Shown: piece by piece, positions 1 through 16,423 of the stretch
Layout: each line of letters begins with the position of its first letter
Numbering within the stretch: position 1 is the first letter of the stretch
Origin: an uncultured virus (IMG/VR IMGVR_UViG_3300037991_001647)
Lineage: Duplodnaviria; Heunggongvirae; Uroviricota; Caudoviricetes
DNA length: 20,000 nucleotides
Virus record (IMG/VR): IMGVR_UViG_3300037991_001647
Span: 51,782 to 71,781 of that record
Reading direction: 5' to 3' (one strand)
Program-made: the position numbers and the translations under genes
The notes under the pieces: generated by a model
Told to the model about the DNA's origin: nothing
The model's input: the letters and a program-made list of their open reading frames with translations, nothing else
Databases searched by the model: none

Positions 1-159
1 TTTCACTATTTCGTCTTTTAATTTTAGTTTTTCGACTTTCATATTTTGAACGTCAGAATGTCTATTATACTCTTTTATTATCTCGTTGTCAAGATGCCTA
101 TGCACTTCTTTTAACTTTTGTAATCTTCTTGACTTTCCTCTTAGACCTGTTGCCATCAT
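1..159 (-). CDS. YdcH/DUF465-like small coiled-coil protein (runs off the window at its 3' end)
   Basis: Not in the ORF track. Manual translation: MMATGLRGKSRRLQKLKEVHRHLDNEIIKEYNRHSDVQNMKVEKLKLKDEIVK. The H..LD..I and K..KL.LKDEI pattern is typical of DUF465. AAGGAG SD upstream. Confidence 0.75.
   Translation of the reverse strand, partial: MMATGLRGKSRRLQKLKEVHRHLDNEIIKEYNRHSDVQNMKVEKLKLKDEIVK
64..92 (-). promoter_or_regulatory. Perfect sigma70 consensus promoter inside the DUF465-like ORF
   Basis: Minus strand TTGACA(92-87)-17 bp-TATAAT(69-64). Confidence 0.75.
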
Positions 160-219: not shown

Positions 220-1512
220 TTATGATACTACAAAGTATAGTATCGATACAGCCGCAATAGCAAGAGAACCTGCATTGAGTTCGCTATGTCTACCACTACA
301 AGCCTTAATTACAACGTGTGCAATAAAGCCTAATGCTATACCATATGCAATATTAAATGTTAGAGGCATAATAATTGCCGCCAATACTGCTGGTGCATAT
401 TCACTTACATCATTCCAGTCAATATCTTTTAAGTTACGTAAGAAATACGTAGCAATAAAGACTAATGCTGGTGCAGTTGCATATGCAGGAATAGATTGTG
501 CCAATGGTGCTAATACCAAACACAATGCAAATAATACTGCTACTGTAACCGCAGTTAGTCCTGTTTTACCGCCTTCTTTGATACCAGCACCACTTTCAAT
601 ATATGATGTAGTGTTACTTGTACCAACTAAAGCACCTACTGTTGTTGCAGTTGAATCTGCTAATAAGGCTCTATCAATTCCTTCAACTTCGCCTTTTTTA
701 TTGACTTTACCTGTTAAGTTAGCAACACTTGTTAGTGTTCCTGCCGTATCAAAAAAGTCAACAAATAAGAATGCAAAAGCAACTCCGATAAATCCAGCAG
801 TTGCAATCATACTAAAATCTAATGTAAATGCGTGTGATGGATTCGGTACTGAACCTACTACACCATTTAAATCAGCAATTCCTGTTACCCAAGCAATAAT
901 AGATACTGCTAAGATACCAATAATAATTGCACCTGGAATCTGTCTTTTATCAGCGATAGCCATTATAGCAAAACCAAGTCCTGCTAATAGAACAGGCCAA
1001 CTAGAAATATCACCAAGACCAACTAATGTTGCCGGGTTATCTACTACAACTCCTGCATTTTTCAAACCAATAATAGCAAGAAACAAACCGATACCTGCGC
1101 CGATACCTAGTTTCATTCCTTTTGGAATACTATTAATGATGTATCTTCGTGCTGGAGTTAAACTTAAACCAAGAAACACAATACCTGCGATAAACACAGC
1201 CGCCAGTGCTTGTTGATATGTGTACCCCATTCCAAAAATAACACCGAATGCAAAAAAGGCATTCAATCCCATTCCTGGTGCTAGACCTACAGGCCAATTA
1301 GCCCATAGTCCCATAATGAGAGTACCAATTACTGCCGCAATAATTGTTGCAGTAAACACGGCACCGAAATCCATTCCAGTACCTTCAGTTGACAAAATCG
1401 CAGGGTTTACCACTGTGATATATGCCATTGTAAGGAATGTCGCAAGACCGGCCATTACTTCCGTTCTGACCGTTGTTTTCTTCTTAGACAAACCAAATAG
1501 TTTTTCTAACAT
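220..1512 (-). CDS. NCS2 family nucleobase permease, AzgA/GhxP-type (guanine/hypoxanthine/adenine)
   Basis: 430 aa polytopic membrane protein with motifs TEVMAGLATFLTMAYI.VNP.IL, LAPGMGLNAFF, DFFDTAGTL, TTSYIESGAGI.EGG.TGLTA and MPLTFNIA.GI. AGGAGGA SD at 1519-1525. Confidence 0.95.
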   Translation of the reverse strand: MLEKLFGLSKKKTTVRTEVMAGLATFLTMAYITVVNPAILSTEGTGMDFGAVFTATIIAAVIGTLIMGLWANWPVGLAPGMGLNAFFAFGVIFGMGYTYQQALAAVFIAGIVFLGLSLTPARRYIINSIPKGMKLGIGAGIGLFLAIIGLKNAGVVVDNPATLVGLGDISSWPVLLAGLGFAIMAIADKRQIPGAIIIGILAVSIIAWVTGIADLNGVVGSVPNPSHAFTLDFSMIATAGFIGVAFAFLFVDFFDTAGTLTSVANLTGKVNKKGEVEGIDRALLADSTATTVGALVGTSNTTSYIESGAGIKEGGKTGLTAVTVAVLFALCLVLAPLAQSIPAYATAPALVFIATYFLRNLKDIDWNDVSEYAPAVLAAIIMPLTFNIAYGIALGFIAHVVIKACSGRHSELNAGSLAIAAVSILYFVVS

Positions 1513-1535
1513 TATATTTCCTCCTGTTAGTTGTA

Positions 1536-3077
1536 TTAACCAAAAAGATCCGAGACAGTATCAGGTGTAGAATATTCTTTCTTTTTACCTTTTACCGCCT
1601 CGGTAAATTCTTCAGTTCTTACATTTGCTTCCTCAAACTCCATAAAGTCCGGAGTAGTGGAAATGTTTTGGACACGTGAACCTTCACATTTTCTTAAGAA
1701 TGCTTTAAAGTCAGTTAACATATCCATTGGATTATCTGATACAAATAGTTCCTCTACAAACTTTGCAAAGTATAATACTGTATCAGGTACAACATCACTT
1801 AACACATTTGTTTTACCTAAAGTTATGTTGTGTATATCGATTTTATCACGTAACATTTCATATTCGTGGTCAAATCTTCTTAATGCATCTTGCATACCAC
1901 GTATATGATATTCTGTATTATGTGCTTGAATCAATATGTACGATAAACTATCCCAACTTGATTTTGCTTCCTTCTTGTTCCTATTCAACATACCTGGTTG
2001 CATATAGTTGATATCACGCATATTAAGTCGTGAACCAATTGCTCCATCGTACATCCAAGGTTGATTCGGATTAGAAATATCTTGTCTCCAATTCAACTTT
2101 TTAGTTTTATAAGACCAAGCACCGGCACTCAAGTCAGGATAGTCATATGCTAGTCCTTTAGATGCAGTGATATAGGGAGAAGCCGCATCAAAGGAAATTG
2201 TGATGTTCGGATTTACACGTTCTCTAAGTTGTCTTTGTATGGCTGTCAAATAACAACCCCAAGGGAGAACACTAATGCCTAAAACGTGTATCCAAACATC
2301 GTCACCTGCTAATAGACCATCATCACGCATACGTATTAATCGTCTTAGCAAGAGTTCTGCATCACCGGCGTGGTCACCTGCCATCGCATATCCTTCGAAT
2401 GCTCTGTCGCCATATACTTTTGGATCGTTAAATTCTTTAACGTTTTGATACCACTTTTCACTAGTTTCCCAATTAGCACCGTGAAGTGTATTAAGAAATT
2501 TAGTTTTGCCAGGGATACGATTATCTATAAAAAACTTATGATTAAATATTGTTTTCTCTAAACAATCATCAGGACTTTTTAATCCTGTTCTATCACGATA
2601 CTGTGGAAGATATGCCCATAAAGGAATATCAAGTGTCATACTATAATCACAATATTCCTCTAACCAAGTCATAATTCCACAACGTGTCTTTTGCCAATCA
2701 GCACCATTTTCGAAATTACTCCAGTCAAGTTTCCAAGCACCACTACCAATTTGATAGCCTCCCGAATCACCAACTAATACTGTATTTTCTCTGTTACGAT
2801 TAACAACCATACCATCATCTTGTTTAGTACCATCTAAATCAAGATTGGCGTGACCGGCTGAATAAAGCCCGTGTGAGTAATACACATAGCCTTTATCCTT
2901 ATCAAATATATTCAGTCCTTCAAGTCCGTGTTCAAACTTCTTTGGAATACGTTCTGGTGGGAACATATCTGTCTTGTCCGCATAATGTTGTGAGATTTTA
3001 CGAACATAGAAATTTGAAATAGCAGGCAAAAATATAGCATAGCCTGAACTTAGATTATTCTTACCTAAGTCTATCAC
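1536..3077 (-). CDS. tRNA-guanine transglycosylase (TGT)/DpdA-like base-exchange enzyme
   Basis: 513 aa with DSGGYQ, MTLDIP, HVLG, SFDAASP and a late HN motif in TGT order. Lacks the CxCxxC zinc motif of bacterial tRNA TGT. GTG start just after the clamp stop. Confidence 0.8.
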   Translation of the reverse strand: MIDLGKNNLSSGYAIFLPAISNFYVRKISQHYADKTDMFPPERIPKKFEHGLEGLNIFDKDKGYVYYSHGLYSAGHANLDLDGTKQDDGMVVNRNRENTVLVGDSGGYQIGSGAWKLDWSNFENGADWQKTRCGIMTWLEEYCDYSMTLDIPLWAYLPQYRDRTGLKSPDDCLEKTIFNHKFFIDNRIPGKTKFLNTLHGANWETSEKWYQNVKEFNDPKVYGDRAFEGYAMAGDHAGDAELLLRRLIRMRDDGLLAGDDVWIHVLGISVLPWGCYLTAIQRQLRERVNPNITISFDAASPYITASKGLAYDYPDLSAGAWSYKTKKLNWRQDISNPNQPWMYDGAIGSRLNMRDINYMQPGMLNRNKKEAKSSWDSLSYILIQAHNTEYHIRGMQDALRRFDHEYEMLRDKIDIHNITLGKTNVLSDVVPDTVLYFAKFVEELFVSDNPMDMLTDFKAFLRKCEGSRVQNISTTPDFMEFEEANVRTEEFTEAVKGKKKEYSTPDTVSDLFG

Positions 3078-3080
3078 TTA

Positions 3081-3836
3081 CTAACTGCCTGATTTTGCTG
3101 GAAGAATGTATTCGTATAGACCTAATCCACTGTCTACTTGAATCATCATTGCACCTTGGTCTGACATTTTAACACTCATTGTGCTAGTATCACCAAGTTT
3201 CAAGATTGTCAAAACAGTTGCTAGAGGAAAACTCCAACCTGTTTTTAACTCACCACTGACGTTATGTGCAAAAGGAAGTTCTACTCTATCAGTAGACCTG
3301 TCACCAATAAAGAATTTTAGTGTACCATCTACTGTCTTTACAGTAAACAACGGATCGAAAGCACCTAAAATACTTGAAAAGTATTGTAAGTCTTTGATTG
3401 CTTTTTGTGTTGGCATAACTTCAACGTCCCACTTAGCACCTTTAAAGTTTGCCGTTTTGATTTGTGCATCAACTAACTCTGAAACAATTACACGATAAGT
3501 TGATTGCATTGCACCAGGAATTTCAAATGAAAGTTGTGTTGGAACTTTCTCACCATTACGTTCTTCGTGAACGACTTCAACTGATGCTTTAACTGATTTA
3601 CCCTCTTTATCTTCACCTTCGTAGTTCAGATAACCATTTAATACCCCAAGTCTACCTAGACCGAATTTACCTTGAAACTCTGGTACTGGTTTATGAAGTT
3701 TGCCTCGCAATACTACAGTTCTGTCATCATCCATAGCATCTATAGATGTGCCATTTTCATCTGTAGTTACTTTTGCCGCTTGGATAATACCTAATGAATG
3801 AGTATGCTTTACAATATCTTTTAATATATCTTGCAT
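3081..3836 (-). CDS. DNA polymerase sliding clamp (gp45/PCNA-like processivity factor)
   Basis: 251 aa, typical clamp size. Alternating helix/strand pattern (IDAMDDDRTVVL, GKFGL..L..L, C-terminal YEYILPA). Located in the PolB cluster. AAGGAG SD. Confidence 0.7.
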   Translation of the reverse strand: MQDILKDIVKHTHSLGIIQAAKVTTDENGTSIDAMDDDRTVVLRGKLHKPVPEFQGKFGLGRLGVLNGYLNYEGEDKEGKSVKASVEVVHEERNGEKVPTQLSFEIPGAMQSTYRVIVSELVDAQIKTANFKGAKWDVEVMPTQKAIKDLQYFSSILGAFDPLFTVKTVDGTLKFFIGDRSTDRVELPFAHNVSGELKTGWSFPLATVLTILKLGDTSTMSVKMSDQGAMMIQVDSGLGLYEYILPAKSGS

Positions 3837-3866
3837 ATTTTGTTCTCCTTATGGTTTAATATTACT

Positions 3867-3895
3867 ATACTATCAGTTTTCAATACCAATGTCAA
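3867..3895 (-). promoter_or_regulatory. sigma70-type promoter for clamp-TGT-permease genes
   Basis: TTGACA(3895-3890)-17 bp-TAGTAT(3872-3867), about 30 nt upstream of the clamp ATG. Confidence 0.65.
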
Positions 3896-4424
3896 TGCTT
3901 TTTTTCTTTCTTCCTGATACTGGATTGTCTACCCAATGTATCTGATTAGGAGGCATAAAACCCCATATAAACCAAGCATTTCCAAATGTAGGTGCACCTT
4001 TTCCAGTAAAATCAATACGATTGTTATACACAAGTGCGGACATTCCTTTGTCCATAAACATCTGTCCTCGCTTTAATCCCTGAAAACTTGTCACAGGAAG
4101 TAACAAAGCAAATGGTTTACCTAGTGAATAACAATGTTCTAAAAACTGATCCTTCTTACTATATGGTGGATTGGTTATAACACCATCAAAGATATCAGAC
4201 CGTCCACAATCAAAAAAATCCCTAGAACCAGACCCAACCATATTATAGCCGTGTTTGGTAAATCCTCTAAGAATGCTTGAACTTTTTCCGCTAGTCGCCT
4301 CATAGTAAGTTTTCTCCTTATCTAAGTATTTCAGTAAAGGTATGATTTGATCCTCAGGAGTGTAACACTCGTCTGACTCAGTATTCGTTGCTCTACGATT
4401 TATTAAGTCCGTATAAGTGTTCAC
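3873..4424 (-). CDS. Small N6-adenine (amino) DNA methyltransferase
   Basis: 183 aa. DECYTP, degenerate SAM-binding motif I (YYEATSG), catalytic ITNPPYS, and GKPFALLLP. GTG start overlaps the upstream TGA. Confidence 0.82.
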   Translation of the reverse strand: MNTYTDLINRRATNTESDECYTPEDQIIPLLKYLDKEKTYYEATSGKSSSILRGFTKHGYNMVGSGSRDFFDCGRSDIFDGVITNPPYSKKDQFLEHCYSLGKPFALLLPVTSFQGLKRGQMFMDKGMSALVYNNRIDFTGKGAPTFGNAWFIWGFMPPNQIHWVDNPVSGRKKKSIDIGIEN

Positions 4425-5474: not shown

Positions 5475-8267
5475 TTAAAAATCAAATAAGTTAGTAAAAG
5501 TTTCTGATGCATTTGCATCACTCAAATCCCATTTAAGAACACCTATTAAGTTTTGTAGTTTCTTATCAATAATTGTTGCTTCCATTTCTTCATCATCAAA
5601 TGGGAGTTCTTGAAACCACTGAGGAATTCTAGTTTCATCAATAGGATATGCCACACTAGTCATCTTCATATTGTTAGGTCTTAGTTTACAAACAATAGTT
5701 TTCATACCATCAACAATCTCTAATGCATACTTGTCTTGATGTAATTCTCTTAACAAGTTCCAATTGATTGCCGCCGATACGTGACCAGGCAAATGCACTT
5801 TATCTTTTTTACCTTCTTCTTCGCCTTCTAGTTTGAATTCTCTACTTTGTGACTTAGCAAGTTTACTAAGTTTATTTCTATACATTGTAATATTATTAAC
5901 ACGTTTAGGAGTACCTTTCTCCCAACCAGGCTTTGCTCTGAATTCTTTCTTAAACTCTTTGACCATATCAATAACATCTTCTTGTGTACCATCTGTTAGA
6001 ATTTTAACAAGAACATCACTTAAAAAGTTTTGCATATAGTCTGGAGTATCACTTCTTTTCAAGTCAAGACCCATTGCTTTAACCTTACCAGGTTTACCAT
6101 CTACATCTTTTCTTACACCTTCATCATCATAGATTAACATTGCGTATCTTTTCTTTTTGATAAAGATTGCCATAGATGCCGCATTCTCTCGACCTGCTAC
6201 AATAATCTCTCCTTGTTTACGAGGACAATTAAAGAAGTCTTTCATAAAGTCAGGGAAACTTGTGTTGACTTGATTTGCTACTTCGTCATACAGTTCTACT
6301 ACTCTTTCTTTTGACCATTCAATTTCACCAGCATCAATCTCTTTTTTGTATACAGGATACATTGAATAATAGATACTATCTGTATCTCCATATATAACTG
6401 CAGGACCTTTATAATCATATGTTCCTTCAATTACTTCGTTTGTTTTAGAACCCATATGTCTTGTAATACAACGACCAGTTAGTGTTGTACTTTGACCAAT
6501 ACGTTTATCATAGAAACGACAACCAGGATTTAAAATCGCACCATATAGTGAATTCAAGTTAATCTTTTTAACAAGTTGTCTTTTATCCCAGAATGCGATT
6601 TGTTCTTTATCGCCTTCTTCAATCGCTTTCTTTTTGTTTGCTTGTAATACTTTTCTTTCAGCATACCAACGTTCTAACAAACTTGGAATGATACCTTGTA
6701 CATCTTGTCTGAATACTGTACCATTGGCACTGATTGCCCAATCTAAATCTTTACTGAATACTAAATTATATAATTCAGCACCAGTCATATCTGCTTTTTC
6801 TCCAGTCTCTAGTAACAGATTAATCTTTTCAGTTTTATCTTTTTCATTCATCAATCTAAATTCTTCTGCACTAAACGTATCTTCCCAAGCCTGAGCCGCT
6901 CCGAAACCTTTACTTCCACCTCGTCTACCATTTGCAATTCTATCACCAATCAATTTATCTGTATGTGTTGGTTCTAGTTGTGCAACAATAGTTTCGGGAC
7001 TCATATTTAATGCACGAATAACTGAAGGATAAAGTGAATTGATATCAATACCTGCTACCCATCTTTGTATACCTGTCTTTGGATTTGCAACAAAGGCACC
7101 TGCCGCCTTTTGCTTTTCTGCTTCTTCTAGTTCTTCATCTGTTGGTTCTGAATCTTCTTCTCCCCAATCTTTCGCTTTTCTATCTGGCACAACCATCTTT
7201 CTACGATGTGCCTCATTTATAATTGCTTGTTCTGTAACTGCAACTGCACCCATAGTTGTTTTGATATTAACTGTATTGTCGTGTGCAATCTCATTTGCTA
7301 AATCAATGAATTGTAATTTTTTATCTAAGTTGCCTAATAGTGCAACGTCTTGTCTGTTATATTCGATAAACTTATAAAAGTCTTTGTTGTATAAAGTATC
7401 TAATGTTCCTTCATACGCAATTTTCTTTTCACCTAATTCATATTCACCAATAGTATCTAGTGAGTATGAATGCATTTCGTGATATGTATACTTACGATAT
7501 AGTTCAAGATAGTCAAGATGAATACGACCTGATAAGTCATATGTCACACTTTCTTTACCAAATCTAACTACACGCCTTTCGTGAGGAAGTAGATCCCATA
7601 AACAAAGTTTACGTGTATGAGACTTACTCATAATATTTGTAATACGTCTAACTGTATATGGAATATCGAAACCCTCTGAGTTCCAACCAGATAATACATC
7701 TGCATCATCAATCAATGCAATGAAATCGTTTAACATATCTACTTCACTAAGATAGATAAACGTATCATCAAATCTACTTGCTAGTTCTTCTGCCTCTTTA
7801 AGACCTTCACCTTCACGCATATGTTTTGGCGGGATAGCAAACGTAACAAGTTTATCTACCCATTGCAAATAAACTGTGATTGCAGTAATAGGCATAAAAG
7901 GATCCTCTGGAGGAGCAAAGCCTCTGTCTGCATCAAAGTCTACTTCGATATCAAAAAATGCACAATGAAGTTTCGGAGAGTCAACTCCGTTATAGTTTTC
8001 ACTTAAACATCTTACTTCAGGTTTGATATCACTTTCGTAAAACTTTTTACCTGAGTTTATTCGTCTTTCTTTGTGAAGGTCTTTGAGTCTTTTACATTTG
8101 ATTTGACGTACTTTATCACCGTGTATACTTGTATGCTCTCCTCTTGGATCCTTTATATAAAAAGTTCTCCAAGCAGGAAAGTCATTGTATACACGTTTAC
8201 CATTAATTCGTTCAACTACTTGAACGATATCTTTTTCTTTGTTATAAAATGCGTCAACATAACTCAT
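5475..8267 (-). CDS. polB: Family B DNA polymerase with 3'-5' exonuclease (gp43-like)
   Basis: ExoI FFDIEV, ExoII GWNSEGFDIPY, ExoIII YNRQDV. Motif A DINSLYPS, motif B KINLNSLYG, motif C YGDTDS. C-terminal NLFDF clamp-binding-like tail. Confidence 0.98.
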   Translation of the reverse strand: MSYVDAFYNKEKDIVQVVERINGKRVYNDFPAWRTFYIKDPRGEHTSIHGDKVRQIKCKRLKDLHKERRINSGKKFYESDIKPEVRCLSENYNGVDSPKLHCAFFDIEVDFDADRGFAPPEDPFMPITAITVYLQWVDKLVTFAIPPKHMREGEGLKEAEELASRFDDTFIYLSEVDMLNDFIALIDDADVLSGWNSEGFDIPYTVRRITNIMSKSHTRKLCLWDLLPHERRVVRFGKESVTYDLSGRIHLDYLELYRKYTYHEMHSYSLDTIGEYELGEKKIAYEGTLDTLYNKDFYKFIEYNRQDVALLGNLDKKLQFIDLANEIAHDNTVNIKTTMGAVAVTEQAIINEAHRRKMVVPDRKAKDWGEEDSEPTDEELEEAEKQKAAGAFVANPKTGIQRWVAGIDINSLYPSVIRALNMSPETIVAQLEPTHTDKLIGDRIANGRRGGSKGFGAAQAWEDTFSAEEFRLMNEKDKTEKINLLLETGEKADMTGAELYNLVFSKDLDWAISANGTVFRQDVQGIIPSLLERWYAERKVLQANKKKAIEEGDKEQIAFWDKRQLVKKINLNSLYGAILNPGCRFYDKRIGQSTTLTGRCITRHMGSKTNEVIEGTYDYKGPAVIYGDTDSIYYSMYPVYKKEIDAGEIEWSKERVVELYDEVANQVNTSFPDFMKDFFNCPRKQGEIIVAGRENAASMAIFIKKKRYAMLIYDDEGVRKDVDGKPGKVKAMGLDLKRSDTPDYMQNFLSDVLVKILTDGTQEDVIDMVKEFKKEFRAKPGWEKGTPKRVNNITMYRNKLSKLAKSQSREFKLEGEEEGKKDKVHLPGHVSAAINWNLLRELHQDKYALEIVDGMKTIVCKLRPNNMKMTSVAYPIDETRIPQWFQELPFDDEEMEATIIDKKLQNLIGVLKWDLSDANASETFTNLFDF

Positions 8268-8614: not shown

Positions 8615-10546
8615 TTATTTTTGATTTAACTCGTTTATTTTTTGTGCTAAAGCATCAATCTTTTCTAAATCAGAGTCATTTAAGTCTGACATACGTTTTG
8701 GATCTGATTTAAGTTTGATTTTCTTACCGCCTACTTCAATAGTATCGCCTTTTTTCTTGCCTGCTTTAGCGGCCGCATCTAGAGCCTGATAGAAATCATT
8801 GTACTCTGACATAACAATTTTTGCTGACCTTGATACAATCTCATCTGCAACTTTGTCTGCGTTAAATACTTTCTTGGTACTCATTGGACCTCCTGCTTGA
8901 CCTATTTGACCTTTAACAAAGTTAACTGCCTTCTTAGCAAGATTTAGTCCACCTTTGCCTTTCTGCACTGCTCCACCGATTTTATCACCAATGTTACTTG
9001 CAGTTCTGGCCATACCTACTGCTTTTCTTTTATCCATTCCTTTTGAAATAGCATATTCGGCTCCTAACTTTGCTACGTTACCAATCTTGCCTTCTTTCAT
9101 AGCACCTAAGGCAAAGTCAGCAATCTTTAACATACCTGCTTTTGTCTTTAGCATATTATCAATTTTTTCTTTGTTAGCATCGTTAACTTTATCATAAACT
9201 TGTGATACCGCTGATGCAGTAAATAAGTCTACTTTCATTTGACCATCATCAAATTTAACAGGCATATTTTGTTTGTCTGCTACAATTTTCTTGATAGTAT
9301 CCATTGCACCTTCTTCAATCGCTACTGATTCCTCAGTATGTAAATGTGCATCAACACCTGAAGTGCCTTTTAATTTTTTCATTTCAGCATACTTTTTAGC
9401 CGCCTCGTAAGAAGTTTTTGCTTTAACTTCTTCTTTGCCGTGCTTTGCGTGAACAACTGTATATGTATGTTCTTCTGCCTCTACTAGACCCATTTCTTTT
9501 GCAATCTTGTAACGTAACTTGTCTGCATCACCTGGTTCCATATCAGCACTACCTCTACGTCTTGCTTCCATATCAATCTTACTTGCATTTTCTTTGCCAA
9601 GTTTTTCTATGTCGCTGAAACCCATTCTGCTTTCACGCATTTCACTTGATGTTTCCATACTTGCTACGCCATCTTTTTGCATACCTTGTTCTGTAAAGTC
9701 AACATTCATTTTAACCATTTTTGAAATTTCTTTTGCAAAACCTGAATCTGTATAGATAGTCCAAGGACCGTCGTGTGTTACATCTACTTTTCTGTAACCA
9801 TCATCTTCATCACCGTGTANNNNNNNNNNTAGAAATCCACCTGGCTCAAAAGGGTTTTCAACTTCAATCTTTGATACTTTAACAGACTTTGGATTATTTC
9901 CTTCTTTATCCCAAATACTGTCACCTGCTAAAGGAACTTCTTTTGCAGGGATTGACATAGTTGTTTCTGGTTCTTCCTTAATACCCATCTTTTTTGCTTC
10001 GTCTTCTAATTCTGCTTTTCTACGCATAACTTCTTTTTTAAGTTTTTCGTCTTTATGAGTGTTTGGATCCATTTGAATATCTTGCAATGCTTTTTTCTTG
10101 GCCATATAATCTTCTTTGTCCTTGAGAGATGTCGAGTGTGAAGATTCTTCTACGCCTTCTTCTTTATTATTCATTACTGCATCGTAATCTGCCATTTCTT
10201 GTTCATCTGGCATTTCTTCTGCACTTGGTGTATCCATATCCATTGCTGGTTCTTCTGGACCCATATCCATATCACTTGGTGATTCTGGATCTAATGCTGG
10301 CTCATCTGATGCCGCACCTAATTCTAATGTGTGCATTCTAGCCGCTAGACTATCAGTCATACGTTCATACGCCTCATAGGATTTATTGTGTTGATTAGAA
10401 AATGTTAATGCCAAATCGTGAATTGCATCACGGGCATTTTTACCTGATTCAAGTTCTTGTTTGAGTTGTTCTGTAGAACGATTTAGGTAATCTTCAAACT
10501 CATCATTTGAGATTACAAAGTTCTCAGTTAATTGTGTAAGTTTCAT
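8615..10546 (-). CDS. Modular putative virion internal (poly)protein, about 643 aa; spans an assembly gap
   Basis: N-terminus MKLTQLTE. Short modules separated by VEES, IKEE, MRES, LVEA, IEEG, MKEG, MSEY. Acidic Met/Pro-rich linker. ATGA overlap with the upstream gene. Function is inferred. Confidence 0.6.
   Translation of the reverse strand: MKLTQLTENFVISNDEFEDYLNRSTEQLKQELESGKNARDAIHDLALTFSNQHNKSYEAYERMTDSLAARMHTLELGAASDEPALDPESPSDMDMGPEEPAMDMDTPSAEEMPDEQEMADYDAVMNNKEEGVEESSHSTSLKDKEDYMAKKKALQDIQMDPNTHKDEKLKKEVMRRKAELEDEAKKMGIKEEPETTMSIPAKEVPLAGDSIWDKEGNNPKSVKVSKIEVENPFEPGGFLXXXXHGDEDDGYRKVDVTHDGPWTIYTDSGFAKEISKMVKMNVDFTEQGMQKDGVASMETSSEMRESRMGFSDIEKLGKENASKIDMEARRRGSADMEPGDADKLRYKIAKEMGLVEAEEHTYTVVHAKHGKEEVKAKTSYEAAKKYAEMKKLKGTSGVDAHLHTEESVAIEEGAMDTIKKIVADKQNMPVKFDDGQMKVDLFTASAVSQVYDKVNDANKEKIDNMLKTKAGMLKIADFALGAMKEGKIGNVAKLGAEYAISKGMDKRKAVGMARTASNIGDKIGGAVQKGKGGLNLAKKAVNFVKGQIGQAGGPMSTKKVFNADKVADEIVSRSAKIVMSEYNDFYQALDAAAKAGKKKGDTIEVGGKKIKLKSDPKRMSDLNDSDLEKIDALAQKINELNQK
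9820..9829. other. Assembly gap (10 N)
   Basis: Run of N. True length and reading-frame continuity are unknown. Confidence 0.99.
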
Positions 10547-10785
10547 TTTGCATCTCTCTTTATCATAGGACTCTTAACAGGTTTGTTATATACTAAATTT
10601 CCAACACTTGGACTAAAACCCATTGCATATTCCTTTTGTTTCTTTTTCTTTTTAGGTGTCAAATAACCGAAAGGGTCTACAGCCTTTCTGGCATCTTTAG
10701 CCTTTGTTCCTGGTGTCATAGGAAATACGACACTTGAAAAGTTACCAGAAACTATGCTTTCACCTAAAATATCAAATATTTTCAT
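10543..10785 (-). CDS. Small basic protein (80 aa), putative virion internal protein
   Basis: Start revised from TTG 10800 to ATG 10785 (MKIFDILGES...), 5 nt after GATAAATA. Lys-rich. Confidence 0.65.
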   Translation of the reverse strand: MKIFDILGESIVSGNFSSVVFPMTPGTKAKDARKAVDPFGYLTPKKKKKQKEYAMGFSPSVGNLVYNKPVKSPMIKRDAK

Positions 10786-10790
10786 AATAC

Positions 10791-10798
10791 TATTTATC
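10791..10798 (-). promoter_or_regulatory. T4 gp55-type late promoter-like motif GATAAATA
   Basis: One mismatch to the T4 late consensus TATAAATA. Intergenic and repeated at 19331-19338. Confidence 0.6.
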
Positions 10799-10805
10799 AA
10801 ATTAA

Positions 10806-12146
10806 TTAGATTTTATCCCACTTGGAAACAATGTTTTCGCCATCTTCTATTAATTCGTGATAATGTGGGAAATGTTCAGCAAAAGATATCTTTCTTCTAT
10901 CTTCTAATTTCTTGAATTGTATCCAGGCCTCGCCTTTAATATTAGGGTCTACAGGACTTTCTACAATAGATTTCATAGTTTCCATAAGTGACATATACTT
11001 TTCTTTTTGATACATATCTACTTCCATAGAGTTTAAGAAGTCTATTTGTTCGTCTATTGCTTTTGCGTGATGAGGTTCCAATGCTGATACAGATAAATGA
11101 GCAGGATTATCTACCCAATTACTGTGCATATGTATCTTATTTTTATAATTATGTAGTTTTAATTTATCATCAAGATATATTAAAAAATCTTTAAAATAAG
11201 GCAAACTTAAACTGTTATGGGCACAACCAAATCCAACTAATAGATTAGGTAATTCTTTCCCCTTTTCAAAAAACAAGTCTAAGTTTTTATCCCAAGTATC
11301 CCATATTAATCCCCACCTTATAATTTCACTACGTTTTCCTATGGCCTCACCTGATATTTGCATATCATATATTATGTTTGGAGTTCTTTTAACAAGTTCT
11401 ATGAACCTATCAAACTTATGTCTTGGAAAATTCATATTAGTAGTAACTGTTATTACTACCTTTTGCTCTGACTTAGGATCCATCTTATCATTTATGTTTA
11501 CCATAAATTCTTCAATAAACTTATACATATGTTCAGTAAAGAATGGTTCTCCGCCTAATAGACTAAAGTTAACGTGTTCTCTATCTTTTAAAGAATGATC
11601 CCAATATGAATTCAATATCTTAATAACTTTATCAAATATCAAATCTTCTGTATCAGGAAATCTTTGACCTAATTCTTTTTGCCATCTTGTGCTAGACCCA
11701 CCCCAACAATAAACACAAGCCATATTACATTTGTTTGTTAATTCTATTTCAATGAATTTCATATTATCAAATCTTCTCATCTTTTGATGAAAAGCAATTC
11801 TTTTTTTAGGGTGTTGTAAACTTTTTCTTAAATCCCTTTTCATATGAAAATCATAATTTTTTGTGTATTCAGTTCTTACACTACGTCCACCTGCATCTTC
11901 TGATTTCCAACAGAAAGTACAATCTTCACTACGTGTACCACCACTAAGTTCCCATTTTCTTCTTTGTAGCACAGGGTGATTAAAAAGAAAATCTTCTGTT
12001 AAGGTATCCAATGTAAATGTTGTTGCATCTTCATCTTTTTTATTCATTACAGTTTTACAACACCATTTTACATTTTTACGAGGTAAAGNNNNNNNNNNTT
12101 GTTCTAAGTAGTGTACTCGTGGATTAATGTTTTCGATGTTTGGCAT
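10806..12146 (-). CDS. Radical SAM protein with N-terminal SPASM/twitch-like Cys region; spans an assembly gap
   Basis: CNMACVYC (CxxxCxxC), LLGGEPF, VTTN. N-terminal WCCK and CTFCWKSE. TAATG-coupled to the 1425-aa gene. Confidence 0.88.
   Translation of the reverse strand: MPNIENINPRVHYLEQXXXXLPRKNVKWCCKTVMNKKDEDATTFTLDTLTEDFLFNHPVLQRRKWELSGGTRSEDCTFCWKSEDAGGRSVRTEYTKNYDFHMKRDLRKSLQHPKKRIAFHQKMRRFDNMKFIEIELTNKCNMACVYCWGGSSTRWQKELGQRFPDTEDLIFDKVIKILNSYWDHSLKDREHVNFSLLGGEPFFTEHMYKFIEEFMVNINDKMDPKSEQKVVITVTTNMNFPRHKFDRFIELVKRTPNIIYDMQISGEAIGKRSEIIRWGLIWDTWDKNLDLFFEKGKELPNLLVGFGCAHNSLSLPYFKDFLIYLDDKLKLHNYKNKIHMHSNWVDNPAHLSVSALEPHHAKAIDEQIDFLNSMEVDMYQKEKYMSLMETMKSIVESPVDPNIKGEAWIQFKKLEDRRKISFAEHFPHYHELIEDGENIVSKWDKI
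12089..12098. other. Assembly gap (10 N)
   Basis: Run of N near the 5' end of the radical SAM gene. Confidence 0.99.
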
Positions 12147-15100
12147 TACTTCTTTTTAGTCCTCAGTAGTTTCTTTGGAAACCCATCTTTATCTACATCA
12201 TTACCAAACTTCTTCGCTTGTTTGATAATTTCATTGGGTCCTACATCTACTGAGGTATTTATGCCTGGTATAACACGACCTACTCCGGCCGCTTCCTTAA
12301 CTTCATTTGTTAAAATACTTTTTAGTTGATTAATAGTATCGTTAGTTGTTGACGTATGATGTTTAATAGCAACACCACCTGCTTGTTTCCAAGCATTTAC
12401 GTTTTTACCATAGTCATCAATTAAGATGTTTGGTGTACCATCAGGTTGTTTAGCATATTGAGATTTATTATGGTCAATAATAACTTTCTCAGGTTTAAAG
12501 AAACCCAAATGTTTATTAACCCATTCACGTTTGCCTGGATCAACATTAGGATCGTTAGCAAGAGGTGAACTTAAAATTTTATATGAACCGTGCATTTGTT
12601 TTATAGCAGTTAATAATTCTTTATAACCTGCTAAAGGAGGTAGATTTTCCCAGAAGTTAGGAGTATCTACAATCTTCTTTAATGCTTTTGGTATTTCTCT
12701 TTTTGGTATATCTCTATAAGTTTTGACGTTCATAAGTTTAGCCCATTCTGTAAAGAAGTCAACTAATACTCCGTCCATATCTACAAACACTTCTGATTTA
12801 GATTCTTCTGCCTCTGTCATCTCTGCTTGAGGTATACTAGGTCCACCTGATGATTTAGTTTGTTTCTTTGTCTTATTACCAAACTTATCTTTTACATAAT
12901 TGTATGCACCTATAGCCGCACCACCGCCTGATGTACCTGCACCTGCAATTTTATAAGCAGGATCTGTCATTAACTTACTTGCTATCTTTGGTCCATATGT
13001 TCTTGCTAAATGGGCCGCACCTTGTATTGCTGGATATATCCATTCTTTCACATCTGATTTTGCAAATGCTCCCATATAATCAGGTATCTTTGTTTTAACC
13101 CAAGGACCTCTGTGCATAAATCTTGCACTCATCATAACATTTGTACCAAAGTATTCTTCTGGTCTCATTATCATTACTTGATATTGTCTCTTTTCATTAT
13201 CAACACCTACAACTTCTACTTCCATTTCATCGTGTTTCTTACCTTTGTAAGTGATGCCGTGACCTGTCATAAATCTTGAAACTTTTTCTAATACAATACT
13301 TTCTTGTACTGGTACTTTCTTTAGTAAATCTTCTTTACTTAATTTGTAATTAGATTTCATCCATTGGTCTTGTAAGTCTGTTAGTAACTGACCAAGTTGT
13401 GGTCCTGCTCTATATCCCATTGCAAGTAAATCTTTGCCATTTACTGGAAACTCAGGCTTTTCAAAAGAATGCACTGTATCATAAACATCATTCTTATTAT
13501 GCATATTTGCCCAAGCAAGTAAATGGTCTTGTGATACACCTTTAACAAGCATATCTTTTGCTTGTTTTGGATTAATGTTTTGACCTTTATGTTTAATTAA
13601 AAAGTCAAGCATTTCTGTATCATATTTACTCATCTTCCATTCTCTTGCAATATTACTATTGTCTAATAATATAGCAAGTGAAATAATAGGACCTGCAGGT
13701 TCACCTAACTTAGATGGTTTGATACCACCTAATCCAATCATTTGATTGACACCTGTTTTATTCATCCATTCAAGTGATTCTTCTGCATTAGTAGACATTA
13801 AAAGTTTTGACATTTCTTGCCAAATTCTTTCAACTGATAATCCTTTTATGCCTTGTACATTATCTTTGATAGCATTCAAAGTATCTTCATCCCATTTTGG
13901 ATTATCTAATTTAGATTGAAATCTAAAGTATCTTAAAATTCTTAAGTAATCTTCTTTAATTCTTTCTGCAGGATCTCCTACAAACTTTGAAACTTTATCT
14001 TGTAAGTCGTCCATACCACCATTGTAATCATAGATGTTACCATCAATATCCATTGACATTGCATTGTAAGTTAAGTCTCTACGTTTAGCATCTTCTTCCC
14101 AACTACGAACAAACTCAACTTCTGCCCTTCTACCATCAGTTTCTTTGTCTGCACGTAGAGTTGTTATTTCAAATGGTTCATCATCAATAACGGCAGTAAT
14201 TGTTCCGTGTTCTATTCCTGTAGGAACAGTTTTTACTTTTGCTTTATCAAGCATATTCATCATTTCATCTGGTGTAGCATCTGTGGCAAAATCAATATCT
14301 TTAGGTTCTTTACCTAAAGCAATATCTCTTACTGCACCACCAACAATTCTTACTTCGTAATCATTGTCTTTGAATATCTTATCTAATTTTTTAATAGCAG
14401 GAGTAATAATTGGTTTTATGTTTATTGATTCTTCATTAATGCTTTCTTTTTTCTTTCTACCTGCACAATGAGCCTTTTGTGAAAAGCCTTTTGGATTTGA
14501 GCAATTAATACTTTTCTTATATTTGTTACTCCACTTTTCAAATATATCACCTTCAAATAATTCGTTACCATATAATCCTAAATACTCTTGCTCAAGTTCA
14601 CGCCAGTTAATTTTGTCATTTGTTTGCATTGCCAACATCATTGCATAGTAACCAAGTGAATGTCTAAGTTTACCATTAGTTTCTTTATACTTTCTTTTAA
14701 GTATTTTATGCATCATTTGTGCCATATTGATATATGCTTTTTTGTTTATTGCGTGTCCTAACTTACGAGCAACTACACCAAATGGTGTTTCTTCATTTAC
14801 TTGTTTTTCAAATTTCCAAGACTTAACTTTATTTGGAAGAATAACTCCACGTGGTGCTGATAGTTTATTAACATCTAAATCATCGCCCCACCATACACCA
14901 TCAAGTCCTAATGTTTCTGCATATAAAGGTAATACATATTCTAGTACACCAGTTGCTTCAATTCTACTTTGACCTGTTGCTTTCTTTAATTTGTCAGTAG
15001 GAACAATACCACCTTTGTCTATATCAACATCATAGTCTTCTAATTCATCGCCGTGTTCTGCTTTCGCATCAGCCATTGAATTAAATGTTTGACTAAGAGT

Positions 15101-16423
15101 ATCATCCATTTCGTCATCATACCAACTTACTGTAACAGTTTCCTGTTGCTCAAGAAATCCATTATCAATAGCCCATTGTTTGATTTGATTGTTTTGTTGT
15201 GATGTAAGTTTATGTGTATCTAAAAATGTATTGTTTTGTTTTGTTGCAGTATATGTATCGCCTGAAACTTGTCCTCTAGCAATACGTCTCCAAGCATCAG
15301 GTTCTGTACTAACACTTAACCCGTTTCCTTCATAACTAAAGTCACCTTTTTTACTTGCATCTAAGGTACCTACGTGATATAAATCTTTTAAAGATATTGT
15401 AGGAAACTTTGTTTCTTCATTTACTTGTTCACACTTACAAGGTTCAGCATAGCATTTACCACACACCCATTCATTTACAACTGATTTTAATTCATCTGGT
15501 AATAAAGCAATCGCTTGTTTTCTTAAATTCTGATTACCCTTTGTCATAACTCTTAATAAGTCTGCCTTTTCTGCGTGATATACTTTAGCAAACTTAGGAT
15601 CATTTTGTGCGATATCTTTACCATTGCTTATCAAGTCTGCATACTTAACTGTTTGTGCCTCTGCACTAACACCTGCTAGTTTGTCTCTATCGATTGCTTT
15701 ACGTGTTTTTCTATTACCATCTTCTGGTTTACTTACATCTGTAAGTTCAACAACTAGTTTAGCAATCTTAGGACCAAACTCTCTTGTTATGTCCATAGGT
15801 GTAGTATTTGTATCTTCAACTGTATCGTGTAATAAAGCCGCCGCCTGTTGTTCTATAGTACCGCCTGCTTGTTTTACTATATTTCTAACTTCATCTAAAT
15901 GAACATAATACGGATCACCAGTATACTTTCTCTTGTGGTCTTTATGAGCCTCTTGTGCAAACTTTTCTGCTTTTGCTATTATATCCATTTCTTCATTTTC
16001 TGTGTATATGTCTTTGAAGTATACACGAGGAAATTTTAATGTCAATGATAATAATTCGTTTCCGTCAACATTTGCACGTAATATTCTAACTGGATCACCA
16101 GAATTTAAAGCGGCCAACCATCTATGATGACCATCAATAATATAATCATCACTACTTGCTAGTAATGGTTTAGGATTTAGACCTTCGCCTTTTTCTTTAT
16201 TCTTGTTTAATTGTTTTGTAACACCCTGGTCAGAAAATTCTTTCTGCATAGGTTTTAAGTCTTTTGCTTGTACGATTTCAGGTTTTAGATTGACACCATT
16301 ATCTTTTAGATATGATTTGTATTCTGGATAGTCTAATTCTTTCACTTGAGGCATCTTATCTCTTGCGATACCCATAGTGTCTGAAGCCTTAGGCTTTACA
16401 ATTTTGAACTCCTCGAGTTTCAT
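12146..16423 (-). CDS. Multidomain polyvalent protein: ParB/Srx-like + SpoT/Mesh1-type HD hydrolase + ART-like + CCA-adding tRNA nucleotidyltransferase + HAD 5'(3')-nucleotidase
   Basis: IIDGHHRW (about 16120-16140). AHKDHKRKYTGDPY..H, ALLHDTVEDT, VKYADLISN (about 15490-15988). LYHVG..G.GLSVST..GLDGVWW (about 14806-15412). VGGAVRD/DIDFAT/EITTLR/RRDLTYNAM/EDYLRILR/SVERI (about 13310-14428). VFVDMDGVLVDF/ILIDDY (about 12315-12790). Confidence 0.9.
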   Translation of the reverse strand: MKLEEFKIVKPKASDTMGIARDKMPQVKELDYPEYKSYLKDNGVNLKPEIVQAKDLKPMQKEFSDQGVTKQLNKNKEKGEGLNPKPLLASSDDYIIDGHHRWLAALNSGDPVRILRANVDGNELLSLTLKFPRVYFKDIYTENEEMDIIAKAEKFAQEAHKDHKRKYTGDPYYVHLDEVRNIVKQAGGTIEQQAAALLHDTVEDTNTTPMDITREFGPKIAKLVVELTDVSKPEDGNRKTRKAIDRDKLAGVSAEAQTVKYADLISNGKDIAQNDPKFAKVYHAEKADLLRVMTKGNQNLRKQAIALLPDELKSVVNEWVCGKCYAEPCKCEQVNEETKFPTISLKDLYHVGTLDASKKGDFSYEGNGLSVSTEPDAWRRIARGQVSGDTYTATKQNNTFLDTHKLTSQQNNQIKQWAIDNGFLEQQETVTVSWYDDEMDDTLSQTFNSMADAKAEHGDELEDYDVDIDKGGIVPTDKLKKATGQSRIEATGVLEYVLPLYAETLGLDGVWWGDDLDVNKLSAPRGVILPNKVKSWKFEKQVNEETPFGVVARKLGHAINKKAYINMAQMMHKILKRKYKETNGKLRHSLGYYAMMLAMQTNDKINWRELEQEYLGLYGNELFEGDIFEKWSNKYKKSINCSNPKGFSQKAHCAGRKKKESINEESINIKPIITPAIKKLDKIFKDNDYEVRIVGGAVRDIALGKEPKDIDFATDATPDEMMNMLDKAKVKTVPTGIEHGTITAVIDDEPFEITTLRADKETDGRRAEVEFVRSWEEDAKRRDLTYNAMSMDIDGNIYDYNGGMDDLQDKVSKFVGDPAERIKEDYLRILRYFRFQSKLDNPKWDEDTLNAIKDNVQGIKGLSVERIWQEMSKLLMSTNAEESLEWMNKTGVNQMIGLGGIKPSKLGEPAGPIISLAILLDNSNIAREWKMSKYDTEMLDFLIKHKGQNINPKQAKDMLVKGVSQDHLLAWANMHNKNDVYDTVHSFEKPEFPVNGKDLLAMGYRAGPQLGQLLTDLQDQWMKSNYKLSKEDLLKKVPVQESIVLEKVSRFMTGHGITYKGKKHDEMEVEVVGVDNEKRQYQVMIMRPEEYFGTNVMMSARFMHRGPWVKTKIPDYMGAFAKSDVKEWIYPAIQGAAHLARTYGPKIASKLMTDPAYKIAGAGTSGGGAAIGAYNYVKDKFGNKTKKQTKSSGGPSIPQAEMTEAEESKSEVFVDMDGVLVDFFTEWAKLMNVKTYRDIPKREIPKALKKIVDTPNFWENLPPLAGYKELLTAIKQMHGSYKILSSPLANDPNVDPGKREWVNKHLGFFKPEKVIIDHNKSQYAKQPDGTPNILIDDYGKNVNAWKQAGGVAIKHHTSTTNDTINQLKSILTNEVKEAAGVGRVIPGINTSVDVGPNEIIKQAKKFGNDVDKDGFPKKLLRTKKK
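14786..14805. repeat. 20-bp exact direct repeat, copy 1
   Basis: TGTTTCTTCATTTACTTGTT; the minus strand encodes QVNEET. Confidence 0.95.
15410..15429. repeat. 20-bp exact direct repeat, copy 2
   Basis: Identical to 14786-14805. Spacing is 624 bp = 208 codons. Confidence 0.95.

Follow-up and report, generated by a model that had tools for sequence, protein, structure and literature searches.

A 20,000-nucleotide (nt) stretch of DNA from an uncultured virus of the Caudoviricetes (IMG/VR record IMGVR_UViG_3300037991_001647; hereafter the window) carries genes for a sliding clamp, a transglycosylase of the TGT/DpdA type, and an AzgA-type nucleobase permease. Does this phage import a modified base and install it in its DNA, or does the permease serve a more ordinary purpose? 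An earlier note, made from the letters of the window, had suggested that a base such as a 7-deazaguanine is salvaged rather than made and had named purine supply as the simpler alternative. We find that genes for making the base lie just outside the window, and we favor, with a probability of about 0.62, the reading that the locus combines a DpdL-type DNA-modification module with a mobile permease gene for purine supply.

The window (G000:C1:51782-71781; GC content, 33.7%) lies at one end of a viral contig of 71.8 kb that represents a genome ~20% complete. Throughout, G000 denotes the contig with the window, G001 a complete sister genome, G002 a genome that is 92% complete, and L-numbers related loci. 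The elements at issue are the following.

3867..3895, minus strand: sigma70-type promoter, TTGACA-17-TG-TAGTAT, sharing bases with the 3' end of the methyltransferase gene upstream
3081-3836, minus strand: PCNA-fold clamp open reading frame (ORF), 251 aa
1536-3077, minus strand: TGT/DpdA-type ORF, 513 aa, GTG start
220-1512, minus strand: AzgA permease ORF, 430 aa
181-208, either strand: 12-pair G+C hairpin, with a U-run only on the non-coding strand

The three ORFs are all on the minus strand with intergenic gaps of 3 and 23 nt, and the earlier description of them as tightly packed holds.

Synthesis genes beyond the window edge

The earlier note's observation that the window has no folE, queD, queE, or queC is literally correct, but it reflects where the window ends. 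Past the left edge, on the same strand, a 64-aa ORF is followed by dpdL, apt, a glycosyltransferase gene, folE, and queE (G000 C1:51762 down to 48017), with folE, queE, and dpdL 0.2 to 4 kb outside the window. FolE (C1:48916-49593) matches PF01227 with an E value of 3e-47, and QueE matches phrog_2076 with an E value of 1.6e-51. DpdL is 56.5% identical to its counterpart in Pseudomonas jumbo phage PA5oct and 30% identical to that of Cellulophaga phage phiST; its motif, LGYPHRHIF, matches the LxxxHRHxF pattern given for DpdL by Cui 2023 (PMC10516641). The apt product is an adenine phosphoribosyltransferase (APRT; NF002636, 179.5 bits versus a cutoff of 125). The remaining gene of the set is as follows.

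G000 C1:49660-50751 (L041:9661-10752), minus strand: GT-B glycosyltransferase between apt and folE, 42.7% identical to ACP17 gp124

In ACP17, gp124 is located between DpdA2 and DpdL, and a sugar hypermodification of the base is possible by comparison.

The 72-kb G000 fragment has no queD. The gene is found in the complete sister G001, where it stands beside uvsX, and in G002, G003, G019, and Pseudomonas phage Paride, while QueC was not found in G001, G002, G003, or Paride. One QueC-like match in G000 (C1:15469-16131; 24.4 summed bits, cutoff 22) is remote from the cluster and surrounded by radical-SAM genes, and we treat it as probably another PP-loop protein. Its gene belongs to an extended plus-strand series of genes for radical-SAM and other small-molecule enzymes at C1:274-26569 of this contig.

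At the 73 dpdA loci that have 5 kb or more of downstream sequence, dpdL is present in 73, the glycosyltransferase gene in 69, folE in 65, queE in 59, AzgA in 8, and YhhQ in 2; queC and queF are present in none. The DpdL-type pathway set of FolE, QueD, QueE, and DpdL without QueC is thus represented, with queD supplied from the sister G001 and not from G000. By gene content the pathway is de novo, and the phage does not need to import the base. The search of the genome for que genes, which the earlier note had proposed, returned synthesis genes, and its suggestion of salvage in place of synthesis fails.

Two versions of folE occur among close relatives: those of L001-L006 and L011-L013 are 85 to 92% identical to the G000 gene, and those in the rest of L001-L040 are 36 to 41% identical. 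The gene has thus been replaced within the clade.

The transglycosylase

The 513-aa ORF gave no matches in Pfam, PHROGs, NCBIfam, or PDB sequence searches, and no library profile exists for its family, which comprises 2,748 relatives at 90% clustering and 1,064 clusters at 50%. It was placed by folding only. Its AlphaFold model (pLDDT 82) matched TGT in Foldseek with an E value of 2.5e-7; in VIA, Z scores were 16.8 to 17.6 for tRNA TGTs, 15.5 for bacterial DpdA (7ui4), and 14.6 for Cap10, compared to 11.9 for the next fold, the best match having a Z of 17.6 and a root mean square deviation of 4.5 over 306 aligned residues. The model thus has the TGT-type (beta/alpha)8 barrel of the TGT/DpdA superfamily.

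The conserved residues fit this placement. In 109 diverse rows, D104 (in GDSGG), D150, H264, and D297 are each kept in 108 or 109 (108 for D104 and D150, 109 for D297), and hhalign pairs the enzyme's SFDAAS with MFDCV of TGT and its EGYAMAG with DGYAVGG. In E. coli TGT the motifs DSGG, FDEC, and FDCV contain the catalytic and guanine-binding aspartates. E. coli TGT also has the zinc motif CxCxxC of tRNA-acting TGTs, which is absent from the enzyme; none of 36 records matched the tRNA TGT profile PF01702, compared to 14 of 14 in the control, and the window enzyme has no Pfam match of any kind. Residue 199, aligned with the TGT IIQG motif, is His here and Gln in 92 of 109 relatives, a change that may shift base specificity in this clade.

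The relatives from cultured phages are those of PA5oct and Paride (36.5%), Sinorhizobium phage Phosso, and Vibrio phage 2.275.O (28.6%). The enzyme is 37% identical to PA5oct QCG76197.1 over 455 query residues (E value, 4e-102), a protein listed in the DpdA3 column of Data S1 of Cui 2023 (PMC10516641), and is its ortholog as judged by sequence. Deep hidden Markov model (HMM) comparison gave an E value of 1.6e-10 for ACP17 DpdA2, 6.5e-4 for phiST DpdA3 (CGPG_00065), and ~0.2 for DpdA3 of RHph_I1_18 and Ahp1; BFVD matches, in rows not firmly equated with DpdA2 or DpdA3, included an nt-1 protein (5e-10) and a phiST protein (5e-3). Since the profile is closer to ACP17 DpdA2 than to phiST DpdA3, the subfamily label, and hence the expected level of modification, is uncertain. 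According to the accessible part of a preprint (PMC12191111), PA5oct DNA resists five restriction enzymes, is acted on by modification-sensing END nucleases, and was read as carrying modified G in GA/GG. The genomic context of the enzyme and the PA5oct precedent suggest that its target is DNA, and the earlier assignment to the TGT/DpdA-like transglycosylases is borne out by fold, aspartates, and PA5oct orthology.

The permease and its kinship to SAR11

The earlier identification of an AzgA-type NCS2 permease was likewise correct. The protein matches PF00860 (E value, 2.8e-51) and AZG1 and AZG2 (1.9e-71 and 8e-53), is 43 and 42% identical to E. coli AdeP and AdeQ and 36% identical to GhxP/GhxQ, and has the AdeP/AZG-type motif in transmembrane segment 3 (TM3); PF00860 is its only match, and neither PF02592 nor TIGR00697, the YhhQ/QPTR profiles, was hit. 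A "tail protein" label (PHROG 27398) was rejected, as it fits a Moraxella phage record that carries this annotation and matches the permease.

The nearest cellular copies, 79 to 82% identical, are from Pelagibacterales, and in 17 of 17 loci the gene after the close SAR11 azgA encodes a PF00156 phosphoribosyltransferase (PRTase). In a tree of 101 distinct rows, made by a quick method and omitting reverse-oriented, stop-containing, and <380-aa rows as well as L156 and L170-L204, viral AzgA forms one clade (SH-aLRT 96, with two rows from metagenome-assembled genomes inside) sister to SAR11. The AZG-type substrate residues of TM1, TM3, TM8, and TM10 are present: Y56, M138, D345, F396, and E398 of AZG2, contacts taken from the accessible part of PMC11992111, correspond to Y31, M81, D252, Y304, and E306 of the permease. 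At 24 binding-region positions, these five among them, the window copy is identical to 58 of the 59 other distinct viral rows and to all 14 SAR11 rows, and the dpd-linked copies show no specializing change. Contigs from the RNA libraries of three studies cover the gene, although contig depth in such libraries does not allow genes to be ranked.

The sister phage also has a broad set of genes for nucleotide supply. A scan of 137 selected G001 proteins identified phosphoribosyl pyrophosphate synthetase, a second PRTase, IMPDH/GMP-reductase-family and nucleoside-phosphorylase-family enzymes, DHFR, and ThyA.

An optional insert

Of the 98 dpdA loci whose sequence extends 1.5 kb or more downstream, 8 (4 haplotypes) have AzgA, 2 (1 haplotype) have YhhQ, and 88 have neither; all 59 distant dpdA loci are without either transporter. 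AzgA occurs in 5 of 32 records chosen by dpdA, always as the adjacent copy, is absent from 92%-complete G002, Paride, Phosso, and 2.275.O, and is patchy among phages that are >90% identical. The azgA gene is an optional insert, not fixed to dpdA.

The converse count agrees. We examined the best 80 of 97 viral AzgA loci and 21 viral YhhQ loci. Of these 80, 59 have no dpd or que gene within ~6 kb and mostly lie beside uvsX, uvsW, or nrdB. Records that carry AzgA away from the dpd slots are fragmentary, 1 to 32% complete, and dpdA is absent from all seven of the larger ones. It is present in 10 of 49 small AzgA/YhhQ records, all 10 with folE beside the transporter, 28 further short loci having been excluded. 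G017 and G018 belong to the same phage family, but their records lack the polymerase region. As to the co-occurrence of permease and enzyme across phages, which the earlier note had proposed to examine, the two genes are linked at the 8 of 98 informative dpdA loci counted above.

The hairpin fits the picture of an insert. It is present in 6 of 6 distinct transporter-bearing junctions (-17.6 to -22.0 kcal/mol) and in 0 of 12 transporter-less ones, where structures reach -6.3 kcal/mol or weaker. It scores as a terminator only on the plus strand, since the coding strand lacks a trailing U-run, and three RNA-library contigs from two studies (X1, X2, and X7) span it, although such contigs do not prove a single transcript. 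Because it travels with the transporter, has its U-run on the wrong strand, and is bridged by RNA contigs, it looks like a piece of the inserted transporter cassette. The three genes do end at a hairpin in the DNA, as the note had it, but this is probably not the end of the operon.

The sliding clamp and a possible tether

The first gene encodes a clamp, as previously called: its AlphaFold2 model (pLDDT 90.3) has a two-domain PCNA fold, and the top Foldseek matches are all PCNA-type clamps (best E value, 7.6e-12; TM score, ~0.65). Its profile match is phrog_12062, annotated as unknown. In 105 of 108 loci the clamp gene immediately precedes dpdA. Across the window, sigma70 promoter matches are at chance level (75 versus 81 +/- 9 in shuffles), but the promoter that the note placed ahead of the genes is conserved: all 19 distinct sequences upstream of the clamp gene in relatives keep TTGAC[AT]...TAnn[AG]T.

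The C terminus of DpdA, ..SDLFG, resembles that of the polymerase, ..NLFDF; it is kept in the close clade and missing from four distant relatives checked. The modelled complex of the clamp with DpdA residues 474-513 scored 0.42, compared to 0.00 for the best control, at a run agreement of at least 0% and a partner pLDDT of at least 48. Of 157 solved complexes, 116 reach the mark, as do 2 of 215 mismatches; 18 of these solved complexes and both mismatches score 0.60 or below, as the present model does, and the score could be driven by likeness to solved clamp-peptide complexes. DpdA may ride on the adjacent clamp via its C-terminal tail.

Weighing the explanations

The reading of the permease as a purine supplier rests on its optional linkage to dpdA, a binding site identical to that of SAR11, the phage's nucleotide kit, and the reported modification of G in PA5oct, which has neither transporter. 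Several observations weigh against it. In L005 and L006, whose DpdA is 92% identical, a different gene sits in the AzgA slot.

L005:9558-10247, slot after dpdA: YhhQ-family protein, 229 aa, by profile matches; a similar hairpin follows

YhhQ is a family of preQ0/preQ1 transporters. This protein scores 69 bits against Vut_1 (cutoff, 27.2) and 89 against TIGR00697, the profile of queuosine precursor transporters (cutoff, 50.95), and misses the stricter NF008406 (150.5 versus a cutoff of 252). AzgA and YhhQ have five genomic slots in common, which hold, in AzgA and YhhQ loci, respectively, 8 and 2 after dpdA, 8 and 7 directly after folE, 3 and 4 after a gpt-like PRTase gene between folE and queE, 11 and 6 in the uvsW island, and 9 and 2 in the nrdB region. 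Moreover, 21 of the 80 viral AzgA loci, on several tree branches, are in or beside deazaguanine genes, and an unchanged pocket is compatible with 7-deazaguanine, which is one ring atom from guanine. It is therefore conceivable that the phage makes its base and also takes up leaked or lysate 7-deazaguanine or 7-carboxy-7-deazaguanine (CDG) through the permease, AzgA and YhhQ being interchangeable. Vibrio phage 2.275.O, which has YhhQ together with queF, queC, and folE, adds to this case, and the accessible part of Zallot 2017 (PMC5372724) leaves undecided whether adenine and hypoxanthine/guanine transporters import deazaguanines. We nevertheless regard such uptake as rather unlikely. The slots are general cargo hotspots, with 17 of 202 neighbor gene clusters recurring across slot groups (one of the 17 a reverse-frame artefact); linkage to dpd/que genes is seen for 13 of 21 YhhQ loci but for only the 21 of 80 AzgA loci; YhhQ after dpdA is known from a single haplotype; and the binding site of dpd-linked AzgA has not specialized. 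YhhQ itself is under PurR control and may transport further purines (PMC5372724), and the accessible part of Hutinet 2019 (PMC6884629) reports no correlation between phage YhhQ and dpd group. A broader proposal, in which marine jumbo phages import or recover 7-deazaguanines through interchangeable SAR11-type AzgA and YhhQ and a clamp-tethered DpdA installs them at the fork, appears slightly more doubtful still.

Other explanations fare much worse. A phage that depends wholly on imported 7-deazaguanine is hardly credible: the window without que genes and the 72-kb contig without queD would suit it, but folE, queE, and dpdL stand next to the locus on its own contig, that contig is only ~20% complete, the complete sister has queD beside uvsX, and 90 of the 98 informative dpdA loci lack AzgA. 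That the TGT-fold enzyme acts on tRNA, or on protein as Cap10 does, and not on DNA is very improbable; its structural scores are indeed highest to tRNA TGTs, and G001 encodes tRNA-Asp(GTC), yet the enzyme has neither the zinc motif nor a PF01702 match, stands behind a clamp in nearly all loci, has no queF or queC near it at any of 73 loci, and is orthologous to an enzyme of a phage whose restriction-resistant DNA was read as containing modified G. Similarly little credence attaches to the permease as a near-neutral passenger, or as a protein with a non-metabolic role such as a change to the host membrane, placed here by chance. Its patchiness among nearly identical phages and its many unrelated positions would be expected of a passenger, but it is full length with the binding site intact in 58 of 59 other viral rows, is covered by RNA-library contigs from three studies, and recurs beside purine PRTases and folE. 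Ordinary purine supply is thus better supported than the salvage that the earlier note had put first, and import as a supplement stays in consideration through the YhhQ swap.

PRTase counts at the nrdB and uvsW slots are not relied on, as they include cluster 34, which was labeled by a motif and has no Pfam match at 1e-6. In L057, L074, and L301-L303, folE stands beside AzgA or YhhQ in the uvsW island, at a distance from the dpd cluster, a pattern that would fit joint movement of folE and a transporter. YhhQ was found in one of five incomplete SAR11 genomes, and QueC gave weak matches only, to 373- to 379-aa frames, in four of the five.

Proposed pathway and host

FolE, QueD, and QueE convert GTP to CDG, and for each base exchanged one GTP is spent and one guanine released. 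The locus would form the leading half of a module that makes 7-deazaguanine de novo and modifies DNA with it, in a marine jumbo phage of ~340 kb. FolE, QueE, and a QueD encoded elsewhere would make CDG from GTP, which the DpdL-type T-fold protein would then probably decarboxylate to 7-deazaguanine, a step predicted for DpdL by Cui 2023 (PMC10516641). DpdA would swap guanine in new phage DNA for the 7-deazaguanine base, the likely product being dDG or a glycosylated derivative. The azgA gene, a mobile accessory gene of SAR11-like origin, would have landed behind dpdA with its own hairpin. The predicted substrates of AzgA are ordinary purines, most likely adenine and probably also guanine and hypoxanthine, which the adjacent apt product and other salvage enzymes of the phage could turn into nucleotides, making up for the GTP spent on replication and on modified-base synthesis. 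Because exchange consumes GTP and releases guanine, an importer with a PRTase would be useful without any special specificity.

The host is probably a SAR11-like alphaproteobacterium, given the kinship of AzgA and the permuted transfer-messenger RNA (tmRNA) of G001, a form typical of alphaproteobacteria. This tmRNA (L384:1184-1530) encodes the tag ANDNYQPEMAMAA, and G001 has 10 tRNA genes.

Neighboring features

Upstream and downstream of the three genes, the window contains the following.

1..159 (start), minus strand: coiled-coil ORF, 64 aa, DUF465-like, extending past the window edge (ORF list)
64..92, minus strand: perfect sigma70 site, TTGACA-17-TATAAT, 12/12 matches, within the small ORF
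3873..4424, minus strand: small DNA methyltransferase-like ORF (phrog_799; E value, 1.1e-29)
5475..8267, minus strand: family B DNA polymerase, C terminus ..TNLFDF (ORF list and profile searches)

The clamp-dpdA-azgA set thus stands behind the polymerase and the small methyltransferase. In L001 the small ORF has a weak DUF465 match (E value, 0.0027) below the cutoff. The site at 92-64, present in 10 of 18 distinct junctions, appears placed to drive dpdL, apt, the glycosyltransferase gene, folE, and queE. The methyltransferase C terminus, which in some relatives resembles a clamp-binding tail (FDSLFDL and FDNFFDL), shares its coding bases with the clamp promoter (TTGAC...TGATAT); promoter function, not clamp binding, may account for the form of the tail. 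Farther upstream, short N runs fall in two ORFs (10546-8615 and 12146-10806, within 8615-12146), giving X in translation, and a 1,425-aa multidomain ORF at 12146-16423 comprises HD, CCA-adding/poly(A) polymerase, and NT5C nucleotidase domains.

Relation to known systems

The closest known systems are those of PA5oct and Paride, which share orthologous DpdA (37%) and DpdL (56.5%) and the order polB-clamp-dpdA, followed by a glycosyltransferase gene, dpdL, a PRTase gene, and queE nearby; PA5oct has FolE, QueD, QueE, DpdL, and DpdA and no QueC, as given in Data S1 of Cui 2023 (PMC10516641). Unlike the window phage, they have no AzgA or YhhQ, and their folE and queD are elsewhere in the genome; the window phage in turn differs in having folE in the cluster, APRT in place of the gpt-like PRTase, and H199 for the usual Gln. 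The dDG system of phiST has the same pathway gene set (DpdA3, DpdL, FolE, QueD, and QueE), but its DpdA3 is 259 aa long and weakly similar (deep HMM E value, 6.5e-4 versus 1.6e-10 for ACP17 DpdA2). The full replacement of G in phiST cannot be assumed for the window phage, since the available part of the PA5oct data points to a motif.

Phage preQ0 transporters of the YhhQ/QPTR type (Pantoea phage Vid5, Providencia phages PSTCR4 and PSTCR7, and Vibrio phage 2.275.O; PMC6884629) provide a precedent for a nucleobase transporter in a deazaguanine cluster, but the transporter in the window is of the NCS2/AzgA type. In the literature covered, which leaves out most subscription journals, we found no report of NCS2/AzgA as a deazaguanine carrier or of the spread of a SAR11-related permease in jumbo phages, and the terms AzgA and PF00860 are absent from the accessible part of the Quaiyum 2024 survey of Q-precursor transporters (PMC11130926). 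The permease resembles the AzgA-like purine:H+ symporters (AdeP/AdeQ, GhxP/GhxQ, AZG1/AZG2, and SAR11 AzgA) in family, length, and substrate-contact residues; unlike these cellular proteins, it is phage encoded, belongs to a mostly viral clade, and is mobile among many jumbo-phage positions. The modification core is of a known kind.

The chemical identity of the base made by the PA5oct-type DpdA family was not found in the literature examined, and the cultured phages PA5oct and Paride make it testable for this large family. The exchange of AzgA and YhhQ at one slot in phages that are >90% alike is a candidate for asking whether purine permeases transport deazaguanines. If recapture were true, AzgA would be a new deazaguanine-transporter family, and SAR11 cells infected by phages would have modified bases as a common resource. 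The ordinary reading, too, shows a purine permease related to that of SAR11 disseminated among marine jumbo phages as an accessory gene.

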